DNA of 64,000 bases from Candidatus Spongiisociaceae bacterium (lineage in GTDB: Bacteria; Actinomycetota; Acidimicrobiia; Spongiisociales; Spongiisociaceae), in NCBI GenBank assembly GCA_965243835.1, contig OZ251578.1, forward strand, positions 2,464,303 to 2,528,302, in the 5' to 3' direction. The notes beneath the pieces were generated by a model. The model had not been told where the DNA came from. It made no database searches and saw only the letters and a list, made by a program, of their open reading frames with translations. Each line of letters starts with the position of its first letter. The first letter of the stretch is position 1. Shown piece after piece: positions 39,063 through 43,456 of this stretch. The translations under genes and the position numbers were made by a program.

Positions 39063-40364
39063 TCACCAGAGGGGGGAGGCGCGGGCGGGGGGTTTGTCCG
39101 GCCGCCGCGCGGGGGGAGGAGGCGGGGGCGGCCCGGCGCGGGGGCGGGTTTGCCACTTGTTTCCAATTTTTACCAGTTCCCGGTTATGCTCCCCCAACTC
39201 TCGGTGATGAGGCCCGCACAAGGACGCCAGATTGTCGATGTCGGTGGGACCGCCGTCGTACCAGTCCCGCAGATGGTGCAACTCGGTGCGGTGAACGGGG
39301 GCGTCGCACCGCACGCATCCCTTGTCCCGCACCGCGGCCGCCAGCCGTTGCGCCCCGTTGCCCAACCGCTGATTGCGCCCCAACCACAGGACTCGTCCTT
39401 TCCCCCCGAAGATGATCCCGCACACGGAAGAGTCCGGCGACAGATTGCCCAACACGGAAGGCGGAACGGGCCCGGTCCCCAAAATCTCGCAAGACCCATC
39501 CGGGCGGGAGCCGTCTAGCAACCCGAGGTCGGCCACTACCACCACTTGCGTTAGGGCCGGTCCCGGTTTCCCCTCGCCGTCGGGGAGGGGTTCCAAGGTG
39601 TGCGCCCGGCGGCCGGTAAGCAACTCCGACAAGGCGTCCGCCCGACGTTGCTCATTAGTGCGAATGTCATCGGGGTGAACCTCCCCACCGGAATCATCCC
39701 GCCGCAACAAGTCAGTATGCTTATCCAAGGCTTGCCGCACCTGCCCGAAGCTTATGTAATCCAACTCGGCATGCAGGACTCCCATCTCCAACTCCTTGCT
39801 CCAAAACAAATGCGCCTTGCGTCGCTTCTTCTGCCGCTCCAGCAACTCCTCGCCCCGATCCGGGCTACGGGAGTTGGCCCACCGGCGGGACCGCTTGCGG
39901 AAATCATCCGGATTAGACGCCGCCGCCTCCTCCAAAAACCCCCGATCCTCATCCACCCGCTTGCTTCCGCACTCACCGGCGGCCGCGGCCAGGGCCGAGG
40001 CGTTCTGCAAAGTAATCTCCCCCGCCTCCAACTTGGCCCGCGTGTTGGGCATCTCCTCCAAGCGGCGGGCCACCCGCGACAGGCGCTTGGCCTGATGATC
40101 GGTAACCCCCAACCGATCCCGCAACACCTCACCCGCCCCCGCTCCCCCATCGGTGCGGCTGAGCCGACCGGCCAAATCACATTTCAATGAAGACATCTGC
40201 GACTCCATACGACGCAGGGTCTCCGCCACCTGCCCCAACTCCTCGCGGGACGCCCCCGCTCCCACCAACCGGCGCAGATCGGCTACGGCCGCGGCGTTGG
40301 CGGCCTCCGCCCGCCCGCAAATATGTTGCGGCGTCTCAATGGAGGTGCGTGGGTTGTGCTGCAT
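39063..40364 (-). CDS. HNH endonuclease signature protein with DUF222 (REP13E12-like family)
   Basis: DUF222 architecture with a C-terminal HNH (CVRCDAPVHRTELHHLRDWYDGGPTDIDNLASLCGPHH). Start MQHNPRT at 40364 with an AAGGTGA RBS. Confidence 0.8.
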   Translation of the reverse strand: MQHNPRTSIETPQHICGRAEAANAAAVADLRRLVGAGASREELGQVAETLRRMESQMSSLKCDLAGRLSRTDGGAGAGEVLRDRLGVTDHQAKRLSRVARRLEEMPNTRAKLEAGEITLQNASALAAAAGECGSKRVDEDRGFLEEAAASNPDDFRKRSRRWANSRSPDRGEELLERQKKRRKAHLFWSKELEMGVLHAELDYISFGQVRQALDKHTDLLRRDDSGGEVHPDDIRTNEQRRADALSELLTGRRAHTLEPLPDGEGKPGPALTQVVVVADLGLLDGSRPDGSCEILGTGPVPPSVLGNLSPDSSVCGIIFGGKGRVLWLGRNQRLGNGAQRLAAAVRDKGCVRCDAPVHRTELHHLRDWYDGGPTDIDNLASLCGPHHRELGEHNRELVKIGNKWQTRPRAGPPPPPPPARRPDKPPARASPLW

Positions 40365-40439
40365 GATGTTCACCTTAGAAAGAGGGTGTGACATTCTTTT
40401 TTCGGCTTGTGCCAAGGTATAACCGGATGTTTAGAAACC

Positions 40440-40690
40440 GAATCGCGTTTCCGGGAAGACACTTGGGCTTCCATCTGCTTGACGGTTTCCACTACTTCTC
40501 CCAGCTCGCTCCGGGACGCTCCCCGACCCGAGTTGCCCGCGCAGGTCCGTCGCACAATGGCAACAGCGGCCCTTCTGGCCCGCTCGCAGGCGTGTTGGGA
40601 CGTTCCGACGGGGGCGCGGGTGTTGCGTTGCATGGTGTTCACCTTAGAGGGAGGGTGTGACATTCTTTTTTCGGGGCTTGCATACCGCGT
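40440..40690 (-). pseudogene. Truncated tandem duplicate of the DUF222/HNH gene 5' end including its RBS/promoter region
   Basis: The nucleotide string ggtgttcaccttagagggagggtgtgacattcttttttcgg repeats the sequence at 40360-40400. The encoded peptide MQRNTRAPVGTSQHACERARRAAVAIV... parallels the N-terminus of the full gene. Confidence 0.7.
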
Positions 40691-40728
40691 CGGACCGCCC
40701 GCACCCGACCAGTAAAACAGGCGGCGGG

Positions 40729-43456
40729 TCAGGAGTCGAATGCCTGCTGGGAGGGCCCGCCGGCTTTGGCGGCTTCCAACAACAGGCTGTTCCACGCCGC
40801 TACCAGCGAGTTGTAGGCCACCGCATCCTCGGTGCGTCCGGCGGCATTGGCCGCCTCATACAACAAATACGACAGGCGGCGGGCGTAATCCCCAAACCCG
40901 CCCATCCTCGCCAACAACTCCCCCGCCCTCGCCTCCGACATATCCAAACGCGCCACCAAGTGCTGGGTCAACTCCCAAACGGTCGACTTCCAATCCTCGG
41001 CCGGGTCCCACTTCGGATCCAACTCCTCCCGGGTCAGCAACCGCACTTGGCCGCCCTTGGACTCCGCCACCCCCGCCTCCGCCACGCCAGCCACCGACGT
41101 GTTCATCGCCTTGGCCAACGTCTCCGCATCCCCGAACGGACCCGGGTCGTGACCGAACTGACGGTACCAGGTCAGGGCGAACCGGCTTTCGGAGTCCAAC
41201 TCGGCCTCCTCCTCCGACCCGATATCCTCCAACACCTTGTTGATCAGGGCAAGCGCGGTGCGCACCCGCATCGTGTCCCCGTTGGCCTCCACCACCCGCC
41301 GATACCGGGAGAATATCCGCATCCCCGGCCCGATAGCCGCCTGCGCCATATCCACCGGCGGAATAGCCTGCTCCTGCAACAACCCCACCGCCGCCGGCAA
41401 CTCGGAGCGCAACGCCTCCAAAAACCCGCCTCGCGTCTCCAACAAGGCATCATCCGCCCGCGGCCGACAAGCCAACACCACCGACGACGCCAACGCGGCG
41501 TTTCCGATAGCCACCATCCTGTTTCCCATTTCGGTCCGGATCGGCCAAGTGGCGCTCACCTGCAATCCTGAATCAACCAGACCCTGCAGGAAAGTCTCCC
41601 AACCGGTAGAGGAAACATCCCCATCCTTAGATTCTTGTTGCTTGTAAGCGTAAAAGACAGTGGCGGGAAACTCGGGGTGATGAACCCGCGCTATCTGCTC
41701 CATAACTTTCGTCATCCCCGCTTCAAAATGTTCCTGCGCCGCCTCCTTGGAACCGGCCCGGTATTGATGAGCTACCAACTCTTCCTTTTTGGGCGTAACG
41801 AGGGTTGCGCACTCATCCGGCCACACTTCGGATAAGTTACGACGTAACCACACGTAGAAAAAATCAGAGATATCCGCATATTGAATATTATCATAATAAG
41901 GGGGATCAGTACAAATCACAGGCTTATCAATTTCCCTCAAACGGGCTACCGCATCCCTCTGCAAAACTTCGCCGCTACGCGAAGCAGGCAAGCTCGCAAC
42001 CGCTTTCACTACCCAATCCACTTGCCCCAACCAATTGCCCGTAGACGAGGAAAATGGATTCGCTTCAGCAAAATCCCAAACCATGGGTATAGATTGCCGT
42101 ACTAAGGTATGTGATACTAATTCCCTAGTGCCTTCCCAAGTAGCAATAACAGACCATTTATCAACGCACCGATCAATAACAAAAGCCAGATATGTAATCA
42201 AGGCCTCCGCGTATGCAATTAACCCGGATCCTCCCTCTCGTAATTGGTCTTCCTCGTCAGATAGCCCTGCAATACTCGCATCGGATATCACCTGCTTGCG
42301 CACATTATCCAGCAAATCAGAGAAGGTAGTTAGCGCAATCATCTGGCGATCAGTAAACAAGGAGTCGGTAGTTTCCATTCCGTAAAGCGGGGTCTGAAAA
42401 TTGCGCGGGTTATTTGCGAGTCTAACCGACGGTACTTTATCGGGCAAGTCTAGTTTTGGAATATCAGTATCGCTAGAGTGATATAGGCGCTTCCGTTCCC
42501 CCTCAGATACAATCCCTACCGGCATCACCCCCAGCTTTCCCTGTTTGCCCTGCTCCCGGATATATTTGAAAGTAATAGGAGCGCCGGTTGCTACGCAGAC
42601 GCCGCCACCTCGGCCAATGGTACCCGTATTCGGGGTTCCGCCCTCCCTCACCTTAAACATCACGATTGGAGCATCACGGTCTACAACCGGCTCCGCCCAC
42701 ACCACCGGTTTACCCGGCCTGTTACGCAATATCCCGGACTTGAGCAGGGGCACATGACCCTTCCACGACGGGTCCGGGGATAGGACGGTTCTAGCCCACA
42801 ACCAGGCAATCACCGTCTTGTCATCGACCCGGGGATATAAATGACCGATACGCTCCCGCGCCCGGTCCCGCATCCACTCTCCGTAATAACGAATATCCTC
42901 CGCCAAACCCTGCGACCCCCGCCATGTCTTCAAACCCGAATCCGCGCGGCTCCTCGGATTCACCGGAGGCCGTCCCGCAAACCGCGGCGGTATCTCCACC
43001 ATCGCCTTGGTTATCAGAACCGCAACCGGATTCAGGTCACCCCCGTACGCCGGCAACCCTAATTGCTGAGCGGCCAGGGGGCCTACCCCCCCCCCCGGAG
43101 AAGGGGTCTAATACGTTGGGCAAGTCATCCCCGCACGACGCCCTAATCTCCGCCCGCGCTTCCGCCAACACCTCCCGGTCATTACCGCCCTCCCATGCCG
43201 CCAAACGTTCCAAAATACCGAACAGTCGTTTGCGTTCCGTCTTTTGGTCCTCCGCCGTCGGGAACCGGTCCGGATGAGCGGACGGATCATCCACCAAAGA
43301 CGACCACAACACGGCCCGCACCGCCGCCAAGGGACGGCGCGCCCACCACAGATGCAACGTGGACGGATGACCGTGCCGAATGGACTTCTCCCGCGCCGAC
43401 TCCCGGCTGATCGTATCCAGCGGCAGGGATACCTCGATCAACTTCGTTTTGGCCAT
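40729..43456 (-). CDS. DUF1156-family DNA methyltransferase (motif I DPFSGGG, motif IV DPPY), interrupted by a +1 frameshift in an 11-nt poly-G tract
   Basis: N-terminal ORF 43037..43456 ([42 protein letters not shown]...DPFSGGGG) and main ORF 40729..43056 (DLNPVAVLI...ICTDPPYY) are contiguous if the G11 run at 43086-43096 were G10. Confidence 0.8.
43086..43096 (-). repeat. Homopolymeric G11 (C11 on plus) tract inside the DUF1156 methyltransferase ORF
   Basis: Read directly. Sits at the methyltransferase motif I glycine codons. Confidence 0.9.

Follow-up and report, generated by a model that had tools for sequence, protein, structure and literature searches.

Introduction

To our knowledge, phase-variable methylases that reprogram gene expression have been found almost only in host-adapted pathogens and only among Type I, Type III and a few Type II enzymes; PglX is the one example that we know of from the BREX superfamily. 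The Type III mod phasevarions (ModA, ModB, ModS) combine repeats in the 5' coding region with a variable central target-recognition domain (e.g. PMC8125046). PglX of the Streptomyces coelicolor Pgl system (BREX type 2) is switched by length changes in a coding G tract (PMC4365076, citing Sumby and Smith 2003). A further relative is HmaB of the Hma, or DUF499-centred BREX-related (BR), systems. Canonical HmaB lies in a three-gene operon; its partners are HmaC, a DUF499 AAA+ ATPase, and HmaA, a SNF2/DEAD helicase that is usually fused to a nuclease.

Free-standing homing endonuclease genes are familiar from T4-like phages, where they include the HNH mob and the GIY-YIG seg genes. In Actinomycetota, REP13E12/HNH/DUF222 genes have been counted among the repetitive elements (PMC10589994). 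Here we analyze a 64-kb stretch of DNA (the window) from an uncultured environmental Acidimicrobiia-like actinobacterium, in which an HmaB-type methylase gene is followed by a DUF222-HNH gene. In our assessment the locus probably holds two separate things: an orphan methylase switched by a repeat tract and a selfish DUF222-HNH gene that was inserted independently.

Results

Layout of the locus

The elements described by the first-pass annotation, a DUF1156 methylase gene, an HNH/DUF222 gene, a 5' fragment of the latter and an M81 peptidase gene, are all present on the minus strand where it had placed them (Table 1), and a GFO/IDH/MocA oxidoreductase gene forms the downstream flank. Absent from that annotation was the splitting of the methylase gene into two ORFs, of 139 and 775 aa. 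The 5' ORF covers positions 8-116 of the PADLOC HmaB profile and encodes the helical DUF1156 domain and the first part of motif I (DPFSGGG); beyond this it is out of frame until it ends at a TGA. The 3' ORF covers positions 163-961 of 967 and supplies what remains of the catalytic domain, together with the specificity insert and the helical domains of the C terminus; it contains no internal stop and ends with a TGA at 40729-40731. Both catalytic motifs, I and IV, are preserved. As for the DUF222-HNH gene, its listed ORF extends over 39063-40415, and the ATG at 40364 is the likely true start.

Table 1. Features of the methylase/DUF222-HNH locus (window coordinates)
Feature	Coordinates	Strand	Evidence or remark
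Right copy of direct repeat GCCGCCGCGGTTGTC	39025-39039	minus	~25 nt past the DUF222 stop
DUF222-HNH gene, 433 aa	39063-40364	minus	Pfam DUF222 E 1e-16, HNH E 1.5e-7
HNH zinc-finger nuclease motif (predicted) of the DUF222-HNH gene	39204-39317	minus	
5' leader of the full DUF222-HNH gene	40365-40430	minus	conserved motif AAGAATGTCACACCC...CTAAGGTGAA at 40382-40398
Remnant of an older, diverged DUF222 copy	40442-40684	minus	tblastn and DNA repeat family D2
Left copy of imperfect GC-rich direct repeat CCCGCCGCCTGTT	40716-40728	minus	directly 3' of the methylase stop
HmaB/DUF1156 adenine methylase gene, whole	40729-43456	minus	two ORFs
Methylase 3' ORF, 775 aa as listed	40729-43056	minus	PADLOC HmaB E 1e-252
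Catalytic motif IV DPPY, N6-adenine-type methylase (predicted)	41896-41907	minus	conserved in all homologs listed
Hypervariable central region, putative target-recognition domain	41980-42740	minus	G+C ~0.49-0.54 (low)
Methylase 5' ORF, 139 aa	43037-43456	minus	Pfam DUF1156 E 2e-31; PADLOC HmaB E 1e-40
G11 homopolymer (C11 on the plus strand), encodes motif I Gly codons	43086-43096	minus	frameshift point
M81 peptidase gene, upstream of the methylase	43488-44951		E 1e-79

A methylase without its Hma partners

The methylase resembles HmaB in its near full-length PADLOC match, its DUF1156 domain, its DPFxGGG and DPPY motifs and its C-terminal helical region. The first-pass annotation had claimed that the DUF499 and helicase partners are absent, and this was borne out: tblastn with two HmaC proteins from canonical loci found no HmaC in the 64-kb window, tblastn with canonical HmaA found none there either, and neither was found in the five close loci tested by tblastn (L001, L002, L083, L084, L085), whereas the HmaA queries were positive in about 60 and the HmaC queries in about 68 of 80 control loci. 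DUF3780 is missing from the Pfam gene lists covering 10 kb on each side at L001, L002, L083 to L085 and L154 to L156. The observation that the annotation had named as speaking against itself, DUF499 or DUF3780 genes just outside the window, was not made at L001, a near-identical scaffold whose Pfam gene list has neither within 10 kb on each side. The orphan status of the methylase covers about 21-25 kb on each side. Judged by its sequence, the methylase is a stand-alone, BREX-related HmaB/DUF1156 protein that appears to have lost its ATPase and helicase partners.

A candidate switch in SAM-binding motif I

The methylase gene carries a +1 frameshift inside a G11 run within SAM-binding motif I, and deletion of one G yields a single 908-aa ORF with no internal stop. 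In the window allele, G10 and G13 would be ON and G11 and G12 OFF, and the copy in this genome reads as OFF. The homologous tract is G12 in L001, G11 in L002 and G12 in L084, out of frame in each case; poly-G alleles of the window type are OFF in four out of four, and neither a G10 nor a G13 version occurs among these four. The tract of L154 is likewise G11, yet in frame, as it stands in a different register. Between the window (G11) and L001 (G12) the DNA is 97.5% identical, which makes this a tract-length polymorphism between near-identical strains.

Could the G11 be a homopolymer sequencing or assembly error in a gene that is in truth an intact G10? The window lies on a single contig of 3,175,414 bp, probably derived from long reads, in which the length of an 11-nt homopolymer is unreliable, and one base restores the frame. 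We nevertheless find such an error unlikely. Three independent metagenome scaffolds have G11 or G12 and none of them is in frame; two paralogs on the window's own contig (P0010, P0028) are truncated at the same point; and relatives have frameshifts at penta-, deca- and dinucleotide repeats, where errors of this type cannot arise. Even if the window copy were affected, the tract would remain a hypermutable switch.

Other alleles carry other repeats at this position of the gene, just before or inside motif I: the 10-mer (AGCGTTACCG)x6 in L083, (CAACC)~11-13 in L085, (CAACA)~12-13 and (AC)~12 in L155, and (AACA)14 in L156. At the DNA level the repeat types number six, namely G(n), (AC)n, (AACA)n, (CAACA)n, (CAACC)n and the 10-mer, and peptide repeats in P0009 and P0037 imply (TCCAA)n and (CT)n. 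A simple repeat occupies the position in 11 of 12 close-clade copies as against 2 of 77 canonical GTDB relatives. ON and OFF alleles coexist within one 90% cluster, in which P0023 and P0124 are full length (ON) and P0121 ends right after its CAACA repeat (OFF). Among the 40 closest homologs, about two thirds are truncated at the N terminus and start with MVEIPPRF, as expected if repeat length is random.

A frameshifted methylase whose partners are absent might also be a pseudogene in decay, all that is left of a degraded Hma/BREX-related system. We strongly disfavor this reading and leave it only a very slight chance, since the gene has a single lesion that falls exactly in the repeat tract, the catalytic motifs are preserved, and several loci and tandem arrays retain the same architecture. 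In addition, OFF alleles show purifying selection against each other at a divergence of dS 0.45-1.1, with dN/dS of 0.08-0.18 and no extra stops across 775 codons.

Sliding comparison with the syntenic allele of L083 gave 58-70% identity in the central region of the methylase gene vs 84-96% at both gene ends, and L002 is 83-91% identical to the window methylase in the central region; between alleles the amino acid identity of this region is 44-60%. The specificity region is thus mosaic, swapped between alleles whose ends are conserved. One genome has three methylase genes of this kind in tandem, and three copies were seen in the window's genome. The diversity of the repeats, their length polymorphism, the coexistence of ON and OFF alleles, the low dN/dS, the swapped specificity and the tandem genes all argue for a switch rather than decay, and together they look like the signature of the phase-variable "phasevarion" methylases.

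The DUF222-HNH gene and its insertion site

At the syntenic locus L083 the methylase is present and the DUF222 insert, corresponding to window 39038-40716, is lacking. An imperfect 13-nt direct repeat flanks the insert. Its sequence is single-copy in the DUF222-free site (tgaCCCGCCGCGCCTGTTctcg), where the BLAST pieces have about 13 nt in common (L083 12276-12289), and homology to the empty site resumes at the right repeat copy. The methylase 3' end beside the insert has flank-level identity to L083 (93-94%), and no conversion tract is visible there between the window and L083. Variable presence at a syntenic site and tight boundaries are what is expected of a homing gene, and the DUF222-HNH gene displays both.

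The residues C350, C353, H363, H364, N378, C383 and H387 are invariant in 36 DUF222-HNH homologs, and dN/dS of the gene is 0.12-0.28. At least six DUF222 copies lie on the window's own 3.18-Mb contig. Other copies are units made up of a promoter, a leader and an ORF, with the stop codon as their end. The predicted promoter, CGATTTGACA-17-TAGAAT, is found in the copies of L002, L155, L157 and L158 and is missing from the leader of the window's copy. What had been annotated as a duplicated 5' fragment is indeed a diverged second copy, comprising a 5' UTR motif (40651-40667), an ATG and about 80 codons; it shares 52-55% protein identity with the full gene over 80-84 aa (tblastn), and a 97-nt DNA repeat (40309-40405 vs 40578-40674) is 79% identical. 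Comparable 5' fragment stacks occur in L001, L084, L085 and L156. Taking these features of its sequence together, the DUF222-HNH gene is most likely a selfish nuclease gene of the homing type that favors the site 3' of the methylase.

Linkage of the two genes across loci

The first-pass annotation had also proposed that methylase and HNH gene form a minimal R-M-like pair or mobile module, and that the two might be linked in other genomes. They are linked elsewhere too: at about four of six independent methylase loci, the methylase is followed directly, in the same orientation, by DUF222-HNH or its 5' remnant. A DUF222 gene follows the methylase at the M81-GFO locus (window, L001) and at the rsmI-tatD locus (L002, L155, L156), a gene or remnant in L085 and a remnant only in L084; in L011, a distant orphan relative, DUF222 is found 3.5 kb downstream of the methylase. 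This arrangement would suit a functional pair, with the HNH protein standing in for the missing helicase-nuclease effector of a minimal module, be it R-M-like or BREX-related. HNH and other "backup" nucleases are reported beside BREX-related systems without the helicase-nuclease fusion (bioRxiv 10.1101/2025.10.09.681413), and the HNH residues are conserved under purifying selection. In a variant of this idea the HNH protein would rely on the methylase for targeting, much as Res needs Mod in Type III systems, and an OFF methylase would then be harmless.

We regard a functional pair as quite improbable. The genes occur apart, with a methylase but no DUF222 in L083 and L154 and a DUF222 but no DUF1156 methylase in L157 and L158; in L155 a single DUF222 gene stands behind three methylases of different specificity, as judged by sequence. 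The DUF222 protein closest to that of the window is from L156 (93% aa identity), whereas the L156 methylase is 70% identical to the window's overall and 45-56% in the specificity region. DUF222 is incongruent with the methylase phylogeny and does not co-vary with methylase specificity. Within the same genome DUF222 copies (at least six) outnumber methylase copies (three seen), and a promoter of its own together with stacks of 5' fragments is typical of a selfish element. An R-M-like pair is not supported, given the separate occurrence of the genes, an OFF methylase beside an intact HNH gene, and a DUF222 that does not track specificity. A Type II-like R-M pair would call for co-inheritance with matching specificity, which is lacking (L083, L154, L155, L156, L157, L158), and for an active methylase wherever the nuclease is intact, whereas the window, L001 and L002 each combine an intact DUF222-HNH ORF with an out-of-frame methylase. 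The recurrent position of DUF222 behind methylases is nonetheless beyond pure independence, and a functional tie could still exist.

Alternatively, the two genes might move between intergenic sites as one two-gene cassette. Homology between the window and L002 extends from about 25 bp before the methylase ATG to the DUF222 stop at about 85% throughout, the genomic context of L002 differs from that of the window, and the methylase stands 10-30 bp behind a same-strand upstream gene in every context. At the window locus, however, the methylase is ancestral, its 5' 200 nt and 3' end being at flank-level identity in L083 (93-96%), and DUF222 is the added piece. The trees of the two genes disagree (L156), integrase, transposase and terminal repeats are absent, and each gene has been gained or lost independently. 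We accord a joint cassette little probability; the "mobile module" of the first-pass annotation stands for the DUF222 gene alone and falls for the methylase-HNH pair.

Discussion

On the reading that we favor, a switched orphan methylase and a separate selfish insertion, slipped-strand mispairing during replication would change the length of the tract, and such changes would turn the methylase on and off within a clone in a heritable yet reversible manner. Provided that the ON protein has the predicted methylase activity, a swappable specificity region and up to three genes per genome could give a population many alternative methylation patterns. The likely benefit would be bet-hedging, through epigenetic gene regulation, altered interactions with phage and incoming DNA, or both. 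The DUF222-HNH gene, as a unit of promoter, leader and ORF from a multi-copy family, would have inserted behind the methylase independently. A bolder version strikes us as possible but rather doubtful: that this uncultured lineage runs a combinatorial epigenetic switchboard whose elements are orphan BREX-related methylases, one to three or more at each locus, every one with a switch of its own and a swappable specificity module, and that DUF222-HNH genes home on methylase 3' flanks and on the 5' region of rival DUF222 copies.

Unlike canonical HmaB, the window methylase has no HmaC, HmaA or DUF3780 nearby; it has an added repeat tract and a hypervariable specificity region, and genes of its type follow housekeeping genes at a distance of 10-30 bp instead of forming part of a three-gene operon. 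With PglX it shares membership of the BREX-superfamily adenine methylases, an actinobacterial host and a G tract in the coding sequence. PglX, however, acts within a complete Pgl system (PglW, PglY, PglZ), whereas the window methylase has no partner, many repeat types besides poly-G and several coexisting paralogs with different specificity regions. The Type III mod genes offer the parallel of conserved allele ends, several independently switchable genes per genome and ON/OFF alleles in populations; they differ from the window methylase, which belongs to a gamma-type BREX-related family, is about 910 aa long, has no res gene and comes from an environmental host, not a host-adapted pathogen. 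The putative phase variation here would involve a new methylase family and an environmental host.

The DUF222-HNH gene is like REP13E12 of mycobacteria and other Actinomycetota in its DUF222 domain and C-terminal HNH, its length (about 430 aa), its multiple copies and its behavior as a repeated or mobile sequence, although sequence similarity is only distant. We know of no description for REP13E12 of a promoter-leader-ORF unit, of 5' fragment stacks or of a preference for the flanks of DUF1156 methylases. The mob and seg genes are similarly compact (promoter plus ORF), intergenic, variable at syntenic sites and multi-copy; in contrast to them, the gene studied here resides in a bacterial chromosome, with no co-conversion visible in the methylase 3' end. 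If true, the homing reading would be the first mechanistic context for the long-unexplained DUF222 repeat family of actinobacteria, and the data provide testable target sites for this large gene family, including the REP13E12 repeats of Mycobacterium tuberculosis.

For annotation, these methylase genes carry a warning, about two thirds of them being listed as truncated or split proteins. The switchboard reading, if true, would carry phasevarions into a new enzyme family and into free-living bacteria. Here a defense-family methylase without its partners appears to have gained at least six kinds of slippery repeat, independently, at one position. If confirmed, this would show how a defense methylase is domesticated into a stochastic epigenetic switch, and would suggest that bet-hedging by methylome switching is widespread beyond pathogens.

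Gene content of the locus and search for partner genes

DUF1156 methylases are canonically encoded with a DUF499 ATPase, a helicase-nuclease and, in some cases, DUF3780 (bioRxiv 10.1101/2025.10.09.681413; PMC11232893), a context that is missing at the window locus. Using HmaA (SNF2/DEAD helicase) and HmaC (DUF499 ATPase) proteins from canonical loci as queries, their identity confirmed by PADLOC, we found no match to either partner in the whole 64-kb window; positive controls were detected at about 60 of 80 loci for HmaA and about 68 of 80 for HmaC. This empty search and the Pfam and PADLOC matches bear out the gene description in the first-pass annotation, a DUF1156 methylase next to an HNH/DUF222 gene without the usual partners. 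All features of the locus lie on the minus strand, in a window of 64.5% G+C. Together, the two methylase ORFs span the PADLOC profiles of HmaB, the DUF1156 N6-adenine methylase, nearly end to end, and the 3' ORF has no Pfam match. The GC3 of the methylase is 0.65, compared with about 0.85 in the adjoining genes, and the G+C of its central part drops to 0.49. No Rfam match was found within the methylase-DUF222 locus, and a promoter and terminator scan of 38800-45200 gave no more sites than shuffled sequence. A 141-aa ORF returned by an ORF finder at 40370-40795 was rejected as a gene, since it combines the DUF222 fragment with an out-of-frame reading of the methylase 3' end.

Table. Features of the methylase-DUF222 locus (window positions)
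Feature	Position	Strand	Remarks
M81/MlrC peptidase gene	43488-44951	-	31 bp 5' of methylase gene
Methylase 5' ORF, 139 aa	43037-43456	-	DUF1156 domain; PADLOC HmaB profile positions 8-116 of 967, E 1e-40
Methylase 3' ORF, 775 aa	40729-43056	-	PADLOC HmaB profile positions 163-961 of 967, E 1e-252
5' fragment of a DUF222 gene	40442-40684	-	downstream of methylase
Complete DUF222-HNH gene	39063-40364	-	Pfam DUF222 E 1e-16, HNH E 1.5e-7
GFO/IDH/MocA oxidoreductase gene			convergent; beyond DUF222-HNH gene

The methylase is split at a repeat tract that varies among relatives

A +1 frameshift within an eleven-G run (43086-43096), which the first-pass annotation had overlooked, makes the two methylase ORFs overlap. 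This run codes for glycines of the SAM-binding motif I, DPFSGGG. When one G is removed, both parts join into an uninterrupted 908-aa ORF that aligns colinearly with full-length homologs (900-930 aa); motif IV (DPPY) is intact. The same locus on a metagenome scaffold (L001, 97.5% identical) carries G12 and is out of frame, as are an allele in another genomic context (L002, 85% identical, G11) and a further relative (L084, 77% identical, G12). At L154 (71% identical), G11 is in frame because the register differs by one base. A pattern scan of JGI metagenome contigs for GACCCCTTYNNNG10 returned 68 loci, none of them related to the methylase or to DUF222.

Other relatives have different simple repeats at the G11-equivalent site, between the DUF1156 domain and motif I, leaving the methylase in frame (ON) or out of frame (OFF). 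A repeat tract is present in 11 of the 12 sequenced close-clade copies, compared with 2 of the 77 from representative GTDB genomes, none of which has a G run longer than five at motif I itself. In the closest GTDB relative (L003, Acidimicrobiia MAG OZ246890.1, 59% identity), a G14 lies about 30 nt before HmaB motif I (L003 9919-9932); HmaC is encoded directly 3' and HmaA is not found within 10 kb. This gene may be an intermediate between a full system and a switchable orphan.

Table. Repeats at the G11-equivalent site in related loci (L) and homologous methylase proteins (P)
Copy	Repeat	State
L083	(AGCGTTACCG)x6	OFF
L085	(CAACC)~11-13	ON
L155a	(CAACA)~12-13	ON
L155c	(AC)~12	OFF
L156	(AACA)14	
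P0009	peptide repeat SNPIQ, implies (TCCAA)n	
P0037	peptide repeat SLSLSL, implies (CT)n	

One cluster of proteins at 90% identity contains full-length members (P0023, P0124) and one, P0121, that terminates ...QHNTTQHNS*, an end exactly as predicted from another CAACA unit count. Of the 40 closest homologs in databases, about two-thirds are products starting at MVEIPPRF, just past the tract, a share that fits random repeat length; two more paralogs, from the 3.18-Mb contig that contains the window, are among these products. In alleles that were OFF when sampled, dN/dS is 0.08-0.18 at dS up to 1.1, and extra stops are absent. The tracts in relatives, the mixed ON/OFF cluster, the share of truncated products and the dN/dS of OFF alleles make it very improbable that the frameshifted methylase gene is decaying into a pseudogene. 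Nor does sequencing error suffice to explain the frameshifts in general, though the exact length of the window's own G tract could still differ. Bypass of G11 by transcriptional slippage or ribosomal frameshifting was rejected as a general mechanism because relatives carry penta-, tetra-, deca- and dinucleotide repeats.

Specificity alleles and tandem arrays

The window and the syntenic locus L083 are 93-94% identical in their flanks. Their methylase alleles share 93-96% identity over the first 200 nt and 84-94% over the last 1 kb, and just 58-70% over the central region (about 41980-42740), where the window matches the non-syntenic L002 allele at 83-91% identity. At the protein level, identity between alleles is 44-60% in the central region versus 80-91% at the ends. 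Judging by these alignments, the alleles differ in the way expected of exchanged target-recognition domains. Locus L155 (10001-20480), part of a closed 2.77-Mb genome, has a tandem array of three methylase genes between rsmI and tatD: one carries (CAACA)n and is ON, another carries (AC)n and is OFF, and the remaining gene lacks a repeat. This array is followed by about 800 bp in which the 3' end of a fourth methylase survives as a relic (...AQQAFGH*), and beyond that by DUF222-HNH and a MazE-like gene. At L084, DarT and Macro genes (DarTG-like) and a CAP12/TIR gene (1932-3706 and 16324-17220) flank the methylase, so that the surroundings of some methylase genes of this group are rich in defence genes.

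Association of DUF222-HNH with the methylase

The first-pass annotation had also raised the possibility that the methylase and the HNH gene form a minimal R-M-like or mobile module. Their linkage is real, since DUF222-HNH recurs behind the methylase at the window locus and L001, at the rsmI-tatD locus (L002, L155, L156) and at L085, and as a 5' remnant at L084; at L011, a distant orphan methylase, it lies 3.5 kb downstream. A cognate pair is nevertheless disfavoured by loci at which either gene occurs without the other. At L083 the oxidoreductase gene directly follows the methylase and the DUF222-free site reads tgaCCCGCCGCGCCTGTTCTCG; the 1.7-kb insert of the window is flanked by an imperfect 13-nt repeat that is single-copy in L083. 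L154 likewise has the methylase alone, and no DUF1156 methylase is found at two of the three loci sampled from the DUF222 side: L157, where DUF222 lies in a defence island, and L158, where it adjoins SLH genes. Two Type IIG enzymes (Eco57I/MmeI-like) are encoded in the L157 island (1-14820), along with a PLD-SNF2 helicase and duplicated pairs of HTH_17 and VapC(PIN) genes. On the window's contig, at least six DUF222 copies were seen versus three of the methylase. Between L156 and the window, DUF222 is 93% identical (dS 0.20) and the methylase 70% overall, with 45-56% in the specificity region. A functional tie between the two genes, for example targeting of the HNH protein via the methylase, appears unlikely.

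Where no fragments lie upstream, DUF222 copies have in common a promoter close to consensus (CGATTTGACA-17 nt-TAGAAT) as well as the leader motif AAGAATGTCACACCC...CTAAGGTGAA. Homology between copies stops at the stop codon, which indicates a compact, self-contained unit. The promoter is absent from the copies in the window, L001, L085 and L156, and one to three older 3'-truncated copies precede the gene there; these stacks suggest repeated replacement or nested insertion in the DUF222 5' region. The promoter of the DUF222 element resident at L158 is preceded, about 35 nt upstream, by a degenerate leader motif (GCATGTCACACTCCCTAG; about 7880-7900). This motif resembles a minimal 5'-fragment stack, a hint that an incoming copy inserts into the old leader or 5' region. 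An omega of 0.12-0.28 shows purifying selection on the DUF222-HNH protein, in which the CxxC..HH..N..CxxHH residues do not vary; we infer from this that it is probably an active nuclease. Its AlphaFold2 model is poor (pLDDT 61.5; HNH part <50), and Foldseek of this model against the PDB gave no match at E <= 1e-3, with a weak resemblance to ParB/Noc HTH. No PDB sequence match and no informative NCBIfam match were found, and neither the structure model nor these searches point to a function.

Other features of the window

At 45413-46552 (+), four small ORFs of 56-74 aa that are paralogs of one another (...DIYAPPSPEEVERMVAELESGALDEGRRRARLAYNKKFPHRQMDVEYGLKP...; one is frameshifted) lie in tandem, interleaved with other small ORFs and at lower G+C (about 0.59). 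A 196-nt repeat family occurs in this array at 45473, 45903, 46182 and 46403, the copy number is different in L001 and L083, and the small ORFs have no Pfam family match. The sole other homopolymer of at least 11 nt in the window (62075-62085; G11 on +, C11 on -) lies downstream of an AAA_14/DUF4143 ATPase gene (62298-63599, -) and about 120 bp 5' of the start of a very AT-rich, multi-pass membrane ORF of 607 aa without a Pfam match (60130-61953, -). This run could be another contingency tract, one located in a promoter. An Rfam PYLIS_3 element (pyrrolysine insertion element of mttB; 56811-56910, +; 42 bits, above gathering) lies within an MTTB-family methyltransferase gene (ORF 55077-57311), near genes for a corrinoid protein, a RACo activase and a pterin-binding protein, a hint that an actinobacterium uses, or once used, pyrrolysine. 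A TPP riboswitch (24701-24808, +; 66 bits) precedes an ABC-transporter operon.

Precedents and interpretation

The closest precedents are PglX of the Streptomyces Pgl/BREX system, which is switched through a G tract (PMC4365076), and the Type III mod phasevarions, which combine 5' repeats with variable central domains (e.g. PMC8125046). Phase variation or orphan forms of the DUF1156 family were not found in the searched papers that mention DUF1156 (including bioRxiv 10.1101/2025.10.09.681413 and PMC11232893). The host is taken to be an uncultured actinobacterium, on the basis of WhiB and Ku in L156 and of LigA, which is closest, among named organisms, to Acidimicrobiia MAGs (62-66% identity). 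The best-supported reading of the sequence comparisons, and a fairly probable one, is that this organism would carry a phase-variable HmaB/BREX-related methylase, an orphan within the sequence in hand and now OFF, with an independently mobile, selfish DUF222-HNH element behind it.
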